Assembly: GCA_040755995.1 (NCBI GenBank) | Contig: JBFMAF010000049.1 | Location: 32,001-96,000 of the forward strand | Reading direction: 5' to 3' | Length of the DNA: 64,000 nt | Source of the DNA: Acidobacteriota bacterium | GTDB taxonomy: Bacteria; Acidobacteriota; CAIWXX01 | Shown here: piece by piece, positions 38,323-45,580 of the stretch | How positions within the stretch are numbered: the stretch's first letter is position 1 | Layout of the letters: the number at the start of each line of letters is the position of its first letter | Program-made: the position numbers and the translations under genes | The notes under the pieces: model-generated | What the model was told of the DNA's origin: nothing | Databases searched by the model: none | Seen by the model: only the letters and a program-made list of their open reading frames with translations

Positions 38323-39510
38323 TCAATAGTCGACTATTTCATAGTAGTATGGCGACTCGCCTATGTTGCCCCAGGCGTTCATGGTCGAGACATAGTCTTC
38401 CTTCAAGGCATTCATGACGGTGTTGTACTGGCTATCGCTCATCTCACCAGAGCTGCGGTAGGCGAGTGCCGCGGGTGGCGCCACGCCCGAGTAGTTCTGC
38501 GCCGGAGGGGCCTGCGCCGTGCGGGCGAACATCTGCTGCACCATCTGCTGCCGTTGTGCCAGCGCTGCCGTTTCCCAAGCGTGCCGGAAGTAGTTCCATA
38601 GAATCGACATGCTGCAGCAGAACTGCTTCTCCTGAAGGCTCATTTTCGGAAACCGAGCGGCGATCGACTCGATCGCCGATCGAGCCGATGCTTCGGTCCA
38701 TTGAATCAGCTGGCCGGAGCTTGCCTGCTGGATGAACGAGAGATAGGCGAGCAGCGCCTCGGCGTCCTCGCGCGTGAAGACCAGGTTGTTTGTATCATCC
38801 GACGCCAGCACATGCACGTGGTCGAAGAGCACGCGGAGGAAGATCGGTCTTTGCGTCGCGGGCATCGCTCGATCTGCCTTGTAGAACTCCACAACGAGCG
38901 CTTGCCGCAGAAGGCCGACCTGAAGTGGGTCGGTCACCTGGCGCAGAACCTGGATCGACTGGCCCAGCTTCTGCATCTCGCCGAGGAACCCGGCTGGGTT
39001 TTGCTGGAAATCCGAGACCGCCTGCTGAGTGAGGGCGTTCCTTTCCTGCTCGTTGAGCTGGGCATTGATGATGAATTGGAGTAGATGAATGCCAGTCTCC
39101 ACCGCCGTGGTGGTGAGAGTGAGGCCGCCCGCCGTGCAAAGCACGCCGCCTCCTGCCTGCTGCCGCTCCGGCAGCCGCAATCGCTGCCAGTAGATCATGG
39201 CTCCGTTGGCATCGGTGAAGATCATCTGATCTCCGCCCAGATTGACGAGGTAGGATGTGAGCATCCCCGAGGCGGCATCCTGGAAAGTGATGAGGCTTCC
39301 CTGCACTGCGTATCGGCCGCTCCACTGCCCGAAGAGGTATGTGCCGTCGGGGTTCAAGGTCATCTCGATCGAGAGCTGTGCCGCGCGCCAACTCCCAGTC
39401 AACGATTCCGCGCGCGCGGTCACCCCAGTCAGCAAAGCGCACACGAGCGCGCCCGCGACAACCGTCTGAAGGCGCGCCCTGCAACGGCCTCTATTGATCT
39501 CGCCGCTCAT
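38323..39510 (-). CDS. Hypothetical secreted protein
   Basis: RBS GGAGGAGG, signal peptide (..VTARA), small beta-barrel-like start LTGSW..LNPDGTY..GRY, then Gln-rich helical region. Confidence 0.65.
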   Translation of the reverse strand: MSGEINRGRCRARLQTVVAGALVCALLTGVTARAESLTGSWRAAQLSIEMTLNPDGTYLFGQWSGRYAVQGSLITFQDAASGMLTSYLVNLGGDQMIFTDANGAMIYWQRLRLPERQQAGGGVLCTAGGLTLTTTAVETGIHLLQFIINAQLNEQERNALTQQAVSDFQQNPAGFLGEMQKLGQSIQVLRQVTDPLQVGLLRQALVVEFYKADRAMPATQRPIFLRVLFDHVHVLASDDTNNLVFTREDAEALLAYLSFIQQASSGQLIQWTEASARSAIESIAARFPKMSLQEKQFCCSMSILWNYFRHAWETAALAQRQQMVQQMFARTAQAPPAQNYSGVAPPAALAYRSSGEMSDSQYNTVMNALKEDYVSTMNAWGNIGESPYYYEIVDY

Positions 39511-39750
39511 CTGTCTCCTCCTCCAACAACTGTGCGTCGTAGCGTTCCGCATCGAGCCGCCCACGCCTCATGTCGAACCCCGTCAGTCGGGGAGATGGAC
39601 GGCGTTGAATCCACTTCGACTCCATCCTAGCCGTTCCCTCGCAACAGATCAACGGGATCTGCGCGCAGGGGAGCAGGGGTAGGGGTGCATTGCGACGCCC
39701 GCGCATTCGTGGTATTCCTTAGTCTGGACCCTCATTAGGGGAGGCGATCC

Positions 39751-40194: not shown

Positions 40195-40222
40195 TTGACA
40201 ATCGCGGAGAGACTGGTAGACT
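40195..40222 (+). promoter_or_regulatory. Sigma-70 promoter of the AmmeMemoRadiSam operon
   Basis: TTGACA-16 bp-TAGACT with extended TG. Confidence 0.6.
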
Positions 40223-40249
40223 CGGTAGTGATCCTTAGGATCACTCCCC

Positions 40250-41488
40250 ATGGCTACACGACGGGATTTCCTGAAATCATCCATCAGCCTCGTGCCAGTC
40301 CTGGGAGGCGCTGGGTATCTGCTGTCGCGGTACGGGCTTGTGCCGCTCCTCGGCAGCCCCGATCGCGCCGCGCATGCGGCGACAAGTCTTCAGGAGCTCA
40401 TCAAGGCCGCGCCGAAGGCTCGCTACTGGACGACGCCTGCGCTCGCGGGCCGCAATTGCGCCGCCTGCCACTCCGCCTCCGACGACGTCCAGGGCCGCAA
40501 GCACACGCATGCGCCCACACTCATCAAGTGCCTGCTCTGCGCACAGGGGTGCGCGCTCACCGACGGCGAGCGCGGCAAGTGCCGCGCGCGAATCAACGCC
40601 GGCGGCGAGATGCGCACGCTTGTCTACGGGCGCCCGATCACCGTTCACATCGATCCGATCGAGAAGAAGCCGCTGTATCATTTCCTGCCGGGCTCGGCCG
40701 CCTTCTCTCTGGCCACCTCCGGCTGCCCGCTCCGCTGCAAGTTCTGCCAGAACTGGGAGATCTCCCAGTGCATGCCCGAGGACTACGAGAGCCCGTACGT
40801 CGCGCCGGCTCAGGTCGCCACGGCCGCGTCCTCGAACAAGGCCCCGGTGATCGCTTTCACGTACAACGAACCCACGGTTTTCACCGAATACCTGACTGAC
40901 ATCGCGAGGGAGGCGAAGAAGCAGAAGGTCAGGTGCGTGCTCATCAGCTGCGGCTTCATGACCGAAGCGCCGCTTACCGAGATGTGCTCCGTCCTGGACG
41001 CGATCAAGATCGACCTGAAGGGGTTCAGCGAGAGCTTCTATCGGGAGGTGTCGAGCGCCGAGCTGAAGCCGGTGCTGAGAAGCATCAAGCAGGTGCACGC
41101 GAGCGGCGTGCACCTCGAGATCGTCAACCTCGTGGTACCGACCCTGAACGATTCGGAGAAGGCGCTGCGGGACCTTGCGGCGTGGGTCGTCGGCGAGCTC
41201 GGCCCGGACGTTCCCGTCCACTTCACTCGTTTCCATCCCGACTACCAACTCCTGAACCTGCCTCCGACTCCGGTCGCGACGCTGGAACACGCGCGATCGA
41301 TCGCCCTGGAGAAGGGCATGCACTATCCTTACGTCGGCAATGTCCCGGACCACGCGGGGAACAACACTTACTGCCCCGGGTGCAAGGAACTGATCATCGA
41401 GAGAAACGGCTTCTTCATCAGTCAGATGAACATGAAAGACGGGGCCTGCGCCTTCTGCCGTCACAAGATTGCGGGTGTGTGGCTCTGA
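40250..41488 (+). CDS. amrS: AmmeMemoRadiSam system radical SAM enzyme with Tat-like signal
   Basis: CLLCAQGC..GKCRAR, DPIEKKPLYHF.PG, GCPLRCKFCQNWEISQ, FTYNEP, IDLKGF, HFTRFHP, YVGN, CPGC..CAFC; N-terminus TRRDFLK. Confidence 0.93.
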   Translation: MATRRDFLKSSISLVPVLGGAGYLLSRYGLVPLLGSPDRAAHAATSLQELIKAAPKARYWTTPALAGRNCAACHSASDDVQGRKHTHAPTLIKCLLCAQGCALTDGERGKCRARINAGGEMRTLVYGRPITVHIDPIEKKPLYHFLPGSAAFSLATSGCPLRCKFCQNWEISQCMPEDYESPYVAPAQVATAASSNKAPVIAFTYNEPTVFTEYLTDIAREAKKQKVRCVLISCGFMTEAPLTEMCSVLDAIKIDLKGFSESFYREVSSAELKPVLRSIKQVHASGVHLEIVNLVVPTLNDSEKALRDLAAWVVGELGPDVPVHFTRFHPDYQLLNLPPTPVATLEHARSIALEKGMHYPYVGNVPDHAGNNTYCPGCKELIIERNGFFISQMNMKDGACAFCRHKIAGVWL

Positions 41489-41518
41489 GGGTTCCGACAC
41501 GATCATGGATGAGGTTCG

Positions 41519-43057
41519 ATGAGGAGATCAAACTGGATTCCTATCATGTGGCTAGTTGCGAGTTCCTTCGGAAGCTGCAGCGCGCAGTCCACCGGCAAAG
41601 GTCCGCAGGCTGAGGTGCGCGAGCCCGCGGTAGCGGGGCAGTTCTACCCTGGGTCTGCGGCCGCGCTGAAGCTGGCGATGCAGTCGTACGTCTCTGACGC
41701 GGTCGCCCCGCGCACAGGGCGCCCGATCGCGCTGGTCTCGCCGCACGCCGGCTACATCTACTCCGGGCAGATCGCGGCCGACGCTTTCAAGCAGTGCGAG
41801 GGACAGCGGTACAGTACAGTCGTCATTCTGGGGACGAACCACACGACCCCCGACATGCGTAAGGTGGCGGTCTACCCTGGCGCCGGCTTTCGCACGCCGC
41901 TCGGCGTCGCTACGGTCGACAGCTCGCTTGTGGATGCACTGTTGAAGGAGAGCCCCGACTGCGCGCTGGAGGCCGGGCCTCACGCGCGCGAGCACTCGGT
42001 GGAGGTGCAGATCCCGTTCATCCAGGCCGTGCTCCCGGATGCCAAGATCGTCCCGCTGGTCGTGGGCACGCAGGACCTTGGGATCCTTACGCGCTTCGGC
42101 AAGGTCCTGGGCAAGGTGTTGAGCGGACGCGAGGCGCTCGTCGTCGCGAGCTCGGATCTCTCTCACTACCCGGCCTACGACGATGCGGTTCGGGCCGACA
42201 AGCGGACGCTGGAGGCTGTGGCCGCGATGGATCCGGAAGGCTTCGTGTCCGCGACCGACGCCCTGATGCGCAGCAACATCGCGGGCCTCGGCACGTGCGC
42301 GTGCGGGAGCGCGCCGATCATCGTGGCGATGTCGGCGGCGAAGGCGCTCGGAGCCACGCGCGGCATCGTCGTGAGCTACGCGAACTCCGGCGACGTCGCG
42401 ATCGGGGATTCCTCCAGGGTCGTCGGATACGGCGCAGTCGTCTTCACCACGGGTGCCGGCGGGGCCGACACCAGCGTCTTGAACCGCCCGCCCTCCACCT
42501 CGTCGAACGCGCAGTTCAGCCACGAGGACAAGCTGGCGATGCTCGCATTCGCGCGCAAGAGCATCCAGCGGTTTGTCGAGAGCGACACCGTGCCTCTCGC
42601 CCGCAACGTCGACGCGAGGCTTCTGCAGCCGCGCGGTTGCTTCGTGACACTGAAGAAGCACGGCGAGCTTCGCGGGTGCATCGGCCACATGACCGCCGAC
42701 ACGCCGCTCTACAAGCTCGTCGGCACCATGGCGCTCCACGCGGCGTTCAACGACTCGCGTTTCGAGCAGCTGCGGGCGGCGGAGCTCGCCGAGATCGAAA
42801 TCGAGATCTCCGTGCTCACGCTGCCGAAGCCGGTTGCGAGCGCGCGGGACATCGTAGTCGGGCGAGACGGTGTGATCCTGACCAAGGGGAGCCGCACGGC
42901 GGTCTTCCTGCCGCAGGTTGCGACCGAGCAAGGGTGGGACCGCGACGAGATGCTCGATCACCTGTGCGTGAAGGCGGGGTTGTCCCCCGGCGAATGGAAG
43001 CAGGGCGCCGCATTCCAGACGTTCCAGGCCGAGGTCTTCGGCGAGAGCGATCATTAG
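41519..43057 (+). CDS. Fused AmmeMemoRadiSam protein B (Memo) + protein A (AMMECR1), with signal peptide
   Basis: VREPAVAGQFYP, PHAGYIYSG, EHSVEVQ, SSDLSHY, ACG, VVGY (Memo); GCFVTL, LRGCIG, DSRF, EISVLT, FLPQVA (AMMECR1). Confidence 0.93.
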   Translation: MRRSNWIPIMWLVASSFGSCSAQSTGKGPQAEVREPAVAGQFYPGSAAALKLAMQSYVSDAVAPRTGRPIALVSPHAGYIYSGQIAADAFKQCEGQRYSTVVILGTNHTTPDMRKVAVYPGAGFRTPLGVATVDSSLVDALLKESPDCALEAGPHAREHSVEVQIPFIQAVLPDAKIVPLVVGTQDLGILTRFGKVLGKVLSGREALVVASSDLSHYPAYDDAVRADKRTLEAVAAMDPEGFVSATDALMRSNIAGLGTCACGSAPIIVAMSAAKALGATRGIVVSYANSGDVAIGDSSRVVGYGAVVFTTGAGGADTSVLNRPPSTSSNAQFSHEDKLAMLAFARKSIQRFVESDTVPLARNVDARLLQPRGCFVTLKKHGELRGCIGHMTADTPLYKLVGTMALHAAFNDSRFEQLRAAELAEIEIEISVLTLPKPVASARDIVVGRDGVILTKGSRTAVFLPQVATEQGWDRDEMLDHLCVKAGLSPGEWKQGAAFQTFQAEVFGESDH

Positions 43058-43131
43058 TGAGGCGTGGCCTCGGACCTGTTAGCTGGGCAAAGATCATCGA
43101 TTTCACCCGACGAGCTCTTGGAGTCAGACGT

Positions 43132-43329
43132 ATGAAGGATCTTATCGTTGAGGAAGTCCGCAAGTACCGGATGGAACACACCCGGAAGTTCGACGGCTGT
43201 TTGAAGGCTATCTGCGAAGACCTGCGGGCCGTTCAGAAGACGTACGGCGTCAAGGTGGTTCGCCTTCCCGCGAGAAGGATGGAGCCTGCCCCGCAGACCG
43301 GCCGGCGGCGGACAAACCCCGCCGCCTGA
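43132..43329 (+). CDS. Small hypothetical protein (antitoxin-like, MKD.IVEEVRK type)
   Basis: MKDLIVEEVRKYRMEHTRKFDGCLKAICEDLR; RBS GGAG; overlaps an upstream remnant ending ISPDELLESDV*. Confidence 0.6.
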   Translation: MKDLIVEEVRKYRMEHTRKFDGCLKAICEDLRAVQKTYGVKVVRLPARRMEPAPQTGRRRTNPAA

Positions 43330-43426
43330 TCGTCGGCAGCTCTCAGGCGGCTTTAGGAGAGGGCGCGGCGCGCCGGCTGCATCGACAACATGCACTCACA
43401 CCGTAGGCGCTGAGGCGGGCGGCGAC

Positions 43427-45580
43427 ATGCTGCTGCTGATCGCCATCGGGCTGCTCGCGATCTTGACGCAGGTGGTGCTCATGCGCGAGCTGAGCGCTGC
43501 GTTCTACGGCATCGAGCTGATCTACCTGCTCGCCCTCGGCGCTTGGCTGCTCTGGAACGCCGGTGGGGCTCTCGTCAGCCGCCGAACGCGGGCCCCTTCA
43601 CTCCGGAAAATCGGCGGGCTTCTCGTGCTGCTGGCGATCACCATCCCGCTGGATGTTGCCTTCATCCGCGCAGCGCGACATCTCTTCGGCGGTGTCGCGG
43701 GTGCGTATCTGCCGTTTCCAAGCCAGATCATCGCCATGTGCCTGGCCATGCTGCCCGTGAGCCTGCTCCTGGGACTCCTCTTCCAGTGGGCCGCAAAGCT
43801 CCAGACCGCCCGCGGGCGGACCCTCGCCGTGGCGTACGCGGTGGAGAGCGCCGGAGGAGTCCTCGGCGGGCTGCTGTCAACGATGTTCCTCCTCTGGGGT
43901 GTGCAGAACTTCCTGATCGGGATGCTCTGTGCGACGCTGTCGCTGTGCTACGGCGCGAGCTACCTGGCAGGAGGGAACGCCACGAGGCAGTGGTTTGCCG
44001 CGACAGCGGCGGGGCTGCTCACGCTGCCGCTCCTCTGGAGAGTGAGCGACCTCGATCGCGCCATGACGCGCTGGAACCATCCTGATCTTCTGGATAGCCG
44101 GGACTCCCCGTACGGGCGCATCACAGTGGACAGCACCTTCGGCCAGATGACCGTCTTCGACAATGACGCGCTCTCGTTCGAGAGCGAGGGGACCGACGCG
44201 GAGGTGTTTGCGCACCTCGTCGCGTTGCAGCATCCTGATCCAAAGCGAATATTGACGCTCGGAGGCGGAGTAGAGGGCGTTGTGCACGAGCTATTGAAAC
44301 ACCGTCCGGAGCGAATCGACTACGTCGAGCTCAACGCGGTCACAATCGACCTCGTTCTGCCCAACCTCCCTGAGACGCTACGCAAGTCGGTCGTTGCGCC
44401 TTGCGTGCGCACCATTCTCGGGGATCCTCGAACCTTTCTCCGCGATTCGGAATCCTACGACGTGATCGTTTCGGCAATGGCCCAGCCGACCTCCGGTCAG
44501 GCCAACCGGTTCTACACTGTCGAGTTTTTCCGGCAAGCCGCGGCCCGCCTGCGCCCAGTCGGTGTGCTGGGCTTGCGGCTGCGATCGGCGGAGAATTTCT
44601 GGACGCCGCAGCTGGCGCGGCAGCAGGCGAGCATCGTGCGGGCGATCAGGGCCGCGTTCGCCGATGTCGTCGTGCTGCCGGGGACCTCGAACGTGGTGGT
44701 GGCGTCACAGACCAAGTTGCCTCGGGATCCGCGAGTGCTCGCCGACCGCCTGTCGGCGCGCGGAATCATGGCGCGCCTGATCAGTCCAGCCTATGTCGGC
44801 TATCTCTACCAGAATGATCGGTTCATGGAGATCGCCCGAGTCGTGGACGCCCAGACGGTCCCAGCCAACACCGACAGCCGCCCGATCTGCTACCAGTACA
44901 CGCTCATGATCTGGCTCTCGAAGTTCTTCCCGAGATTGAGTCGCGTGGATCTGTTCGAGATCGTCGATCGCGACAGGTGGGCGTTGCGCCTGCGGTGGCT
45001 TCTTCCGTGCGCGCTGGCGTTGGTTTTCCTACTGAGCCGCCTGCGGCCGGCGATCCGGCGTGCGCTGCTCGTCGCCGCAGCCGGCTTCGCCGGGATGGTG
45101 CTCGAGAGCGTCTTGCTCCTCCACTACCAGCTCAAGAGCGGGGTCGTCTATCAGAACATCGGCGTGCTGCTCATGAGCTTCATGGCCGGGCTCGCGCTGG
45201 GTGCGCTCCTCATGGATCGTTTGGCGAGACGTGGACGGCGGCAGATTCGAAGGTCCCACGGACTCGTGCTGGTGCTCGCATCCGTCGCGACCGCCTCGGC
45301 CGTATGGTGGGGCGTTGGGCGAGGGGTGGGTGGAGGCCTCGCGGGGACAGTCGCGGTCCTCATGGTGACCGGCCTCCTGGTCGCAGCCGTATTCGGATAC
45401 GCGAGCCTCTACCAGGTCGAAGATCAGACCGGAAGCGTCTCGCCGCTCTACGCTGCCGACCTGATCGGCGGTGCGCTGGGATCGGCCGTCGGGAGCCTGA
45501 TGCTCATTCCACTTCTCGGCCTCCCGCTCACCGCCGCGTGTATGGCAGTACTATCGGCCCTGGCGATGCTGTCCCTGTGA
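43427..45580 (+). CDS. Membrane protein with spermidine-synthase-like (SAM-binding) domain
   Basis: N-terminal TM block (QVVLMREL, YAVESAGG), SPYGRITV, LTLGGG, YVELN, GDPR.FL, NRFYTVEFF, NTD.RP, C-terminal TM block with LYAADLIG. Confidence 0.82.
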   Translation: MLLLIAIGLLAILTQVVLMRELSAAFYGIELIYLLALGAWLLWNAGGALVSRRTRAPSLRKIGGLLVLLAITIPLDVAFIRAARHLFGGVAGAYLPFPSQIIAMCLAMLPVSLLLGLLFQWAAKLQTARGRTLAVAYAVESAGGVLGGLLSTMFLLWGVQNFLIGMLCATLSLCYGASYLAGGNATRQWFAATAAGLLTLPLLWRVSDLDRAMTRWNHPDLLDSRDSPYGRITVDSTFGQMTVFDNDALSFESEGTDAEVFAHLVALQHPDPKRILTLGGGVEGVVHELLKHRPERIDYVELNAVTIDLVLPNLPETLRKSVVAPCVRTILGDPRTFLRDSESYDVIVSAMAQPTSGQANRFYTVEFFRQAAARLRPVGVLGLRLRSAENFWTPQLARQQASIVRAIRAAFADVVVLPGTSNVVVASQTKLPRDPRVLADRLSARGIMARLISPAYVGYLYQNDRFMEIARVVDAQTVPANTDSRPICYQYTLMIWLSKFFPRLSRVDLFEIVDRDRWALRLRWLLPCALALVFLLSRLRPAIRRALLVAAAGFAGMVLESVLLLHYQLKSGVVYQNIGVLLMSFMAGLALGALLMDRLARRGRRQIRRSHGLVLVLASVATASAVWWGVGRGVGGGLAGTVAVLMVTGLLVAAVFGYASLYQVEDQTGSVSPLYAADLIGGALGSAVGSLMLIPLLGLPLTAACMAVLSALAMLSL

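Follow-up and report, generated by a model that had tools for sequence, protein, structure and literature searches.

A predicted exported variant of the AmmeMemoRadiSam system with a SpeE-like membrane partner in an Acidobacteriota genome

Radical S-adenosylmethionine (SAM) enzymes are, to our knowledge, known only from the cytoplasm, and their dependence on SAM, low-potential electrons, and iron-sulfur (Fe-S) cluster assembly is the reason why they are regarded as cytoplasmic. Conservation of the AMMECR1/Memo/radical SAM trio extends to humans, and we know of no proven function for it. Burroughs et al. are said to have linked this AmmeMemoRadiSam family, in 2019, to nucleotide-base and isoprenoid modification. 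Here we describe the genes at positions 40195 to 45580 of a 64,000-nucleotide stretch of an Acidobacteriota bacterium genome (GenBank assembly GCA_040755995.1, contig JBFMAF010000049.1, positions 32,001 to 96,000 of the forward strand), which is referred to below as the window and from whose first letter all coordinates are counted; all of the evidence is computational. The window carries a system of the known AmmeMemoRadiSam kind, with all three families above their curated cut-offs and their genes adjacent, and what is new is that this variant is predicted to be exported and to have a SpeE-like partner. Compared with the AmmeMemoRadiSam system, the window adds a twin-arginine translocation (Tat) leader and a CxxCH insert on the radical SAM enzyme AmrS, has AmrB and AmrA fused behind a lipoprotein-type leader, and adds a SpeE-like membrane gene. 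Our preferred reading, to which we assign a probability of roughly 0.6 on the basis of sequence patterns and structural models, is that these genes encode an AmmeMemoRadiSam variant acting at the outer face of the cytoplasmic membrane, with heme, docking, and a supply of SAM. A literature search returned no report of an exported or periplasmic radical SAM enzyme and nothing linking AmmeMemoRadiSam to a Tat leader or a SpeE-like membrane partner, with the limit on both counts that the text and supplements of Burroughs et al. 2019 may bear on the point. In the available part of the HXS paper (PMC13128918), a periplasmic effector is matured by radical SAM enzymes whose own location is not given.

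The first gene of the row, amrS (40250 to 41488, + strand), encodes a 412-residue radical SAM enzyme of the AmmeMemoRadiSam family that scored 373.9 bits against TIGR04337 (cut-off, 220), with residues 88 to 411 covered. Its radical SAM cluster motif CxxxCxxC (C159, C163, and C166; 40724 to 40747, + strand) has all three Cys residues invariant in an alignment of 41 homologues. The best solved fold for the AmrS model was the pyruvate formate-lyase (PFL)-activating enzyme 3cb8, which is likewise a radical SAM enzyme and has a protein loop as its target (template-modeling [TM] score of 0.79 by target); however, AmrS shares only 17% identity with it, has extra N- and C-terminal Cys4 motifs as well as the leader and the CxxCH insert, and lacks a glycyl-radical partner. 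An open reading frame (ORF) for a 512-residue AmrB-AmrA fusion (41519 to 43057, + strand) begins 30 nucleotides past the end of amrS and was identified with TIGR04336 (259.7 bits; cut-off, 26), TIGR04335 (182.6 bits; cut-off, 99), and Pfam, which placed Memo at residues 35 to 307 (41621 to 42439) and AMMECR1 at residues 343 to 507 (42545 to 43039). Unfused AmrB and AmrA genes are present elsewhere in the same genome. The third gene (43427 to 45580, + strand) encodes the SpeE-like membrane protein of 717 residues, with a Pfam Spermine_synth match at residues 259 to 383.

Tat leaders are marked by S/T-R-R-x-F-L-K, a moderately hydrophobic h-region, a basic c-region, and A-x-A. The N terminus of AmrS reads MATRRDFLK and continues with an uncharged stretch, R27, and A-H-A, and its residues 1 to 43 (40250 to 40378, + strand) were assigned to a Tat-type leader in which T-R-R-D-F-L-K, an uncharged h-region, R27, and A-H-A (residues 41 to 43) follow one another. 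The sequence features of a Tat substrate are thereby all found (twin-arginine motif, moderate h-region, basic c-region, and A-x-A), and TatC is encoded in the same genome (230.6 bits; cut-off, 25.1). Both R4 and R5 are invariant in the 41 aligned homologues, and a Tat motif of the [ST]RRxF/L type was found in 116 of the 120 best AmrS homologues (61 to 86% identity, approximately 413 residues), while the remaining four appear to be N-terminally shortened. Such retention exceeds what chance would produce. The only alternative in-frame starts inside the leader are GTG at codons 15 and 31, and because the leader is conserved at the protein level the true start does not lie downstream of it, as might otherwise have been suspected.

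Leader types were compared across 80 AmrS loci from many phyla using our own regular-expression and hydropathy rules, which make the classes heuristic. Leaders of the RR type were found at 32 loci, of the KR/RK type at 13, and of a very hydrophobic type resembling those of the general secretory (Sec) pathway at 10; the remainder had no leader (19 loci) or none beyond a short nonhydrophobic extension (6 loci). The Tat-type leader read from the window in the initial annotation is therefore a conserved one, recurring in RR or KR form at 45 of the 80 diverse loci in addition to the 116 closest homologues. Median leader hydropathy was 1.73 for the Tat-type leaders versus 2.98 for the Sec-like ones, and the most hydrophobic 12-mer of the window leader (1.78) lies within the range of the RR class (1.31 to 2.41; Sec-like class, 2.59 to 3.66). 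The 150 cluster representatives nearest to the AmrS core comprised 42 with Tat-like leaders, 17 with Sec-like or transmembrane leaders, and 91 with none. At two loci (L021 and L034), the AmrS leader is encoded as a separate small upstream ORF comprising a transmembrane leader and the first beta strand. The TGA of this small ORF overlaps the ATG of the leaderless AmrS body (ATGA) at the same split point in two unrelated metagenome-assembled genomes (MAGs) (L021:5200-5450 and L034:2200-2460).

The AmrB-AmrA fusion also starts with a putative export signal, a signal peptide or lipobox-like leader at residues 1 to 20 (41519 to 41578, + strand) that consists of MRR, a hydrophobic stretch, and F-G-S-C ending in Cys20. 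The bacterial lipobox is [LVI][ASTVI][GAS]C at the end of the h-region. The site in the window has Phe at position -3, and a comparable Cys was seen in 18 of 45 fusions. In this sample, which covers the AmrB-AmrA fusions of at least 400 residues across all fetched loci, a hydrophobic leader was present in 42 fusions, the 18 with a Cys at the leader end being among them, and the three that lack a leader adjoin leaderless AmrS. Thus, the signal-type leader proposed for this protein proved to be conserved, with a lipobox-like end in 18 cases.

In AmrS, the first beta strand is separated from the N-terminal Cys motif by a clade-specific 30-residue insert (residues 62 to 91; 40433 to 40522, + strand) with a CxxCH motif and with His84 and His86; this insert had gone unmentioned in the initial annotation. 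The CxxCH motif itself (C70, C73, and H74; 40457 to 40471, + strand) is invariant in the 41 aligned AmrS sequences, and in all 120 of the closest homologues it is accompanied by at least one further His within the next 18 to 21 residues. The genome encodes two Cytochrom_C_asm matches, one of 687 residues (CcmF-like) and one of 253 residues (CcmC-like), so that a heme-attachment motif, a candidate distal His, and Ccm-type genes, the sequence attributes of a c-type cytochrome, are found together. In a Chloroflexia MAG (L016, 204-3610), genes for ResB-like and CcsA proteins (system II) lie directly upstream of, and overlap, a CxxCH-bearing AmrS gene with a Tat leader.

The AlphaFold2 model of the SpeE-like protein, built from a 38-row alignment, had a predicted local distance difference test (pLDDT) score of 88.9 and a predicted TM (pTM) score of 0.87. 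It comprises seven N-terminal helices (residues 2 to 204; 43427 to 44038, + strand), a complete SpeE fold that was also recognized by Foldseek (residues 221 to 475; 44087 to 44851, + strand), and six or seven further helices (residues 516 to 716; 44972 to 45574, + strand). The top solved match of the domain was SpeE of Thermus thermophilus (1uir; TM score of 0.75 by target), with which it has the entire fold in common, both the N-terminal beta domain and the Rossmann domain. For the transmembrane part, Foldseek against the PDB gave only soluble SpeE enzymes, and the Atlas gave only unnamed bacterial clusters. Loops on the side opposite the SpeE fold carry on average 17.2 Lys plus Arg residues versus 3.3 on the side of the fold, a bias that was present in 38 of 38 family members. 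Because seven helices precede the fold and the basic loops lie on the opposite side (positive-inside rule), the SpeE-fold domain is predicted to face outward, to the periplasm, in all 38 members. The best-kept residues of the transmembrane part (Q15, R20, E21, G28, and E30) lie in the first outward loop.

Unlike SpeE, the window protein is embedded in the membrane, scores below the equivalog cut-offs (PRK00811, 82.4 versus 260 bits; TIGR00417, 75.2 versus 249.55 bits), and has A-M-A-Q-P in place of the D-x-x-D-P motif of aminopropyltransferases. At the position of the first, catalytic Asp (A350 here), the 82 family sequences most often have N (25) or G (20), followed by A (8), D (8), and L (6). 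Nucleotide-binding residues were kept in most of the same sequences, namely, G279 in 73, E301 in 62, D333 in 81, and R361 in 82. Selection of decarboxylated SAM depends on the acidic residue of GxG(D/E)G. In the window protein this residue is aligned with V282, and I, L, V, A, or F was found there in 65 of the 82 members (it is possible that the alignment is shifted by one residue in the window's own clade, as E283 follows V282). To judge from these alignments, the family has lost the aminopropyltransferase Asp and kept the SAM-binding residues. A relationship to the fused MFS/spermidine synthase family NF037959 was considered and rejected (16.4 bits against a cut-off of 40, covering residues 332 to 416 only). 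One N-terminally cut protein (P0277), in which AmrS runs into the SpeE-like N terminus, was set aside, as the usual end of AmrS is gone, a Met stands at the joint, and two gene calls may have been merged.

Another explanation of the leaders is that they are membrane anchors or nonfunctional relics, in which case the whole system would operate on the cytoplasmic side of the membrane, with SAM, reductants, and Fe-S assembly within reach. The cytoplasmic record of radical SAM enzymes, to which the literature search added no exception, speaks for this explanation, as do the separately encoded leaders of L021 and L034 and three loci at which a leaderless AmrS stands beside the same partners. However, the charges of the leaders are distributed as in N-in, C-out signals, the exact Tat consensus has been retained in different phyla, and AmrB-AmrA has lipobox-like leaders; moreover, the SpeE fold is predicted to lie outside in all 38 family members compared, and the neighbors and fusions of AmrS include extracytoplasmic modules (CcdA-like, FMN_bind, CBM_11, and ResB/CcsA). 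We therefore consider anchors or relics distinctly improbable, and location of the system outside the cytoplasm, with its parts physically coupled, is judged likely.

The link between the SpeE-like gene and the predicted location of AmrS was apparent from gene neighborhoods. Using BLAST against locus ORFs, a SpeE-like relative (650 to 850 residues, 10 to 15 helices) was found at 37 of the 80 AmrS loci, often abutting AmrS. It was present at 33 of the 55 loci with a leader-bearing AmrS versus 4 of the 25 leaderless ones (Fisher P = 0.00026), counts that serve as a rough guide given the many short contigs, while Fisher tests overstate the significance because the loci are kin. One of the four leaderless exceptions (L021) has its leader as a separate small ORF. 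In the reciprocal direction, when the family alignment was used to search 151 same-phylum genomes, 44 full-length SpeE-like places were obtained outside the window's own genome, a sample that leaves out 10 partial or contig-edge places. AmrS was found within 8 kb at 23 of these places, three times as a contig-edge fragment, and all 20 of the complete AmrS proteins have an RR or KR leader (that of L093, T-R-R-K-F-L, was judged by eye). Seven of these loci share the gene order of the window (amrS, amrBA, SpeE-like) together with the CxxCH insert. Conservation of the SpeE-like neighbor with Tat-type AmrS, on which the initial annotation had made its proposal depend, was thus seen from both sides. 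A DUF362 gene with a Tat-like leader lies directly upstream of AmrS at 8 of the 80 loci, and DUF362 homologues were identified at 24 of 124 loci (the combined set, numbered L009 to L088 and L093 to L136). On contig 40 of the window's own genome, a second SpeE-like gene converges on the gene for a second Tat-like AmrS, which lacks adjacent AmrB and AmrA genes. Since leaderless systems do without the SpeE-like gene and leader-bearing AmrS keeps it, whether the partner is AmrB-AmrA or DUF362, the gene appears to follow the location of AmrS and not its chemistry.

At the other 21 of the 44 places no AmrS was found within 8 kb, and the SpeE-like family therefore has a role that is independent of a neighboring AmrS; the neighbors at these places include DUF6599, DUF362, S41 protease, sulfatase-like, Lnt, and PMT genes. 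A DUF6599 gene accompanies the SpeE-like gene at several loci, whether or not AmrS is also there (L028, L038, L041, L109, L111, and L115), and S41 C-terminal proteases also recur (L040, L046, L073, L125, L126, and L133).

We know of no methyltransferase activity in the bacterial SpeE-like membrane family. A transferase role is nevertheless suggested by its likeness to the fungal N-terminal histidine methyltransferase NHMT (AN4663; Batth et al. 2023, PMC10349129), which in the available sections of that report is a methyltransferase of secreted proteins with seven transmembrane helices and an SpdS fold, works in a compartment topologically outside the cytosol, and requires its transmembrane part for activity. 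According to the same sections, relatives of the seven-helix part were found only in filamentous fungi. As far as those sections go, NHMT and the window protein both have seven N-terminal helices followed by an SpdS fold, and both have a hydrophobic residue at the D/E position of GxG(D/E)G; unlike NHMT, the window protein has six or seven helices past the domain, and the two are likened by architecture and not by the sequence of the transmembrane part. One possibility is that the system is exported but that the SpeE-like protein works as a separate enzyme, an NHMT-like SAM-dependent methyl- or alkyltransferase whose substrates would be exported proteins or a lipid of the membrane surface, with AmrS and AmrB-AmrA acting before or after it on the same substrate and no SAM handed over. 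In addition to the shared architecture and the mostly hydrophobic residue at the D/E position, the conserved polar first outward loop and the N-T-D-x-x-P motif, which resemble a catalytic site, and the 21 family members that stand without AmrS among envelope genes are in line with such an enzyme. This explanation accounts neither for the source of outward-facing SAM nor for the association of the gene with leader-bearing AmrS irrespective of the partner of AmrS, and in the docking prediction described below the SpeE-fold domain sits against the active-site face of AmrS; it is regarded as unlikely.

To obtain this prediction, mature AmrS (residues 45 to 412) and the SpeE-fold domain (residues 205 to 520) were modeled as a complex from our own alignments. 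Each of three runs gave a complex score of 0.89, compared with 0.00 for the best of three controls. Solved complexes attained 0.89 in 116 of 157 cases and mismatched pairs in 2 of 215, counts that apply only roughly here as our own alignments were used; the score expresses the confidence of the model. The runs share at least 94% of their contacts, with partner pLDDT values of at least 86. We know of no solved complex of the AmrS/SpeE-fold kind, and for this reason a score derived from a memorized structure is unlikely. On AmrS, the interface comprises residues 130 to 136, within the conserved stretch H-x-D-P-I-E-K-K-P, residue 155, residues 168 to 174 just past the cluster motif, and Y205, together the mouth of the barrel; on the SpeE fold it comprises the N-terminal beta domain (235 to 256) and the loop 388 to 393. 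In the models this loop contacts AmrS residues 131, 133, 155, 168 to 171, and 205, next to the cluster motif. In SpeE enzymes this loop covers the nucleotide pocket. As the interface lies on the pocket side of both proteins, the nucleotide pockets of AmrS and the SpeE fold would face each other, with the active-site face of AmrS as the predicted docking site of the SpeE-fold domain.

The same contact allows another explanation, namely, that AmrS is an activase like the PFL-activating enzyme and that loop 387 to 393 of the SpeE fold is its substrate, subject to hydrogen abstraction or modification, perhaps once, with SAM bound before export. The closest solved fold, 3cb8, is that of a PFL-activating enzyme with a peptide substrate, the loop is placed next to the cluster motif, and a preloaded single-turnover enzyme would need no SAM from outside. 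However, the loop varies among SpeE-like proteins, and AmrS-linked members of the family conserve it no better than the others do. Cytoplasmic AmrS systems without a SpeE-like partner would need some other target, and the dedicated electron-supply modules found elsewhere (see below) argue for repeated turnover, which together make an activase improbable.

Under the preferred reading of an exported, SAM-supplied system, AmrS would fold and gain its Fe-S clusters in the cytoplasm and cross the membrane folded via Tat, would likely receive a bis-His heme c at the CxxCH insert through the Ccm system, and would draw electrons from periplasmic carriers. AmrB-AmrA would be exported by Sec and likely be tethered as a lipoprotein beside AmrS, and the SpeE-like protein would hold its SAM-binding domain outward, docked on the active-site face of AmrS, with its 13 to 14 helices as the path that brings SAM across the membrane. 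Export, heme attachment, the lipoprotein tether, and the helical SAM path are steps that we infer, and we would look for the substrate among envelope lipids or exported proteins. The earlier suggestion that both enzymes act in the periplasm is supported by sequence evidence: every outcome amenable to in silico analysis that would contradict it, such as a start downstream of the leader or a SpeE-like neighbor not conserved with Tat-type AmrS, was sought, and none was found. A further suggestion, in which the membrane protein would provide or convert a substrate derived from SAM, receives some support from the outward fold, the kept SAM residues, and the predicted docking. A role in SAM supply is proposed because the gene tracks the location of AmrS and because an exported radical SAM enzyme newly needs SAM and electrons; a direct handover of SAM by the SpeE-like protein is offered tentatively and may well prove not to occur.

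Candidate electron-supply modules were identified beside AmrS in other lineages. A CcdA-like DsbD_2 membrane gene adjoins AmrS at 9 of the 12 loci with Sec-like leaders (L022, L025, L026, L029, L033, L035, L043, L044, and L050) versus none of 43 Tat-type and none of 25 leaderless loci (Fisher P = 9e-10), a comparison for which two loci with KR-class leaders of a hydropathy of at least 2.5 (L014 and L033) were moved to the Sec-like class. The loci with the CcdA-like gene are mostly from Omnitrophota, with additional MAGs of Chlamydiae and Auribacterota, and because the 12 Sec-like loci are mostly Omnitrophota, few independent events are represented. At two of them (L022 and L025) the CcdA-like gene is a DsbD_2-FMN_bind-Fer4_5 fusion. 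Fusions to AmrS itself were found among the cluster representatives as DsbD_2-AmrS (P0243 and P0256), FMN_bind-Fer4_5-AmrS (P0245 and P0255), a single transmembrane helix followed by FMN_bind and AmrS (P0246 and P0259), and DsbD_2-FMN_bind-Fer4_5-AmrS (P0261). In others, a signal peptide and CBM_11 or a beta-propeller stand ahead of AmrS (P0248 and P0253), or AmrS, AmrB, and AmrA form one chain behind one Sec-type leader (P0263 and P0292). The cluster representatives also include 15 leaderless AmrS-AmrA-AmrB triple fusions of 900 to 1,150 residues. Modules of the NapH-like, FMN_bind, and DsbD kinds are described by Meheust et al. (2021, PMC8238504), in the available part of the paper, where FMN_bind/NapH-like modules serve as conduits to extracytosolic redox enzymes; its main text, to the extent available, names no radical SAM, Memo, or AMMECR1 client. 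The AmrS copy in the window is without such modules and carries CxxCH instead.

A more general scheme is one of radical SAM chemistry outside the cytoplasm, in which a Tat-exported AmrS would be wired to periplasmic electron carriers through its own covalently bound bis-His heme c and fed with SAM by the docked 13- to 14-helix SpeE-fold protein, with FMN_bind, NapH-like, or CcdA-like modules serving elsewhere. In this full form the scheme is speculative and we consider it doubtful. If it is true, bacteria traffic SAM to the periplasm, and in the lineages that combine a Sec-leader AmrS with CcdA-like genes Fe-S clusters would be built or inserted outside the cytoplasm. Export, if real, would give a whole enzyme superfamily a new location, with a conserved and widespread module opening a new compartment to radical SAM chemistry. 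The module carries candidate answers for the supply of electrons (CxxCH, FMN_bind/NapH-like, and CcdA-like) and of SAM (the SpeE-fold membrane protein). The window variant would also offer an experimental handle on the trio, through its envelope location, a defined membrane partner, and a predicted interface, and it would give a first functional context to bacterial membrane "spermidine synthases" without the catalytic Asp, a large unnamed family.

Several points weigh against an exported, heme-bearing, and SAM-supplied system. We know of no periplasmic SAM pool or SAM exporter in bacteria. The 12 loci with very hydrophobic, Sec-like AmrS leaders raise a difficulty of their own, as for an Fe-S-requiring protein exported by Sec we know of no route to cluster assembly. 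Heme of the c type is normally added to Sec-exported apoproteins, and a Tat leader combined with CxxCH is unusual; the Tat-type leader of AmrS does not match this usual route. ResB/CcsA genes beside a CxxCH-bearing AmrS were found only at L016 among the 124 loci when the L016 proteins were compared with locus ORFs by BLAST. Three loci (L024, L052, and L056) are true exceptions to the link between leader and partner, with a leaderless AmrS beside a SpeE-like gene and a leader-bearing AmrB-AmrA. The 21 SpeE-like places without AmrS and the unremarkable conservation of loop 387 to 393, both described above, count on the same side.

The window's own genome encodes five AmrS copies, three with a Tat-like leader and two without. 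The paralogues are located at C40:122525-125945, at C35:245592-246650, and on contigs C8 and C31, and the C35 copy has neither partner within 9 kb. Selenocysteine was considered for three of these paralogues and rejected, as the flagged in-frame TGA codons are mere stop codons upstream of the start.

A promoter-like site, TTGACA-16-TAGACT (40195 to 40222, + strand), precedes amrS and agrees with the consensus at 10 of 12 positions; by consensus match alone, two such sites were seen in the region versus 0.8 expected. No terminator-like site was found on the + strand within 40250 to 45580 in a consensus-type scan. The layout given in the initial annotation, one promoter-like site ahead of amrS, amrB-amrA, and the 717-residue SpeE-like gene on the same strand, was recovered in full. 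The 369-nucleotide spacer between amrBA and the SpeE-like gene contains a 65-residue ORF (43132 to 43329, + strand) that had not been listed before. It had no Pfam match and a single weak paralogue in the same genome (contig 55, 39% identity), and at the syntenic loci L009 and L010 it is absent and amrBA abuts the SpeE-like gene; it is probably not part of the AmrS system. Upstream of amrS and divergent from it lies a 413-residue ORF (38323 to 39564, - strand) with an N-terminal hydrophobic stretch and no Pfam or NCBIfam match. According to Pfam, the row of genes is flanked by unrelated housekeeping genes, a transglycosylase gene upstream and coaX downstream.

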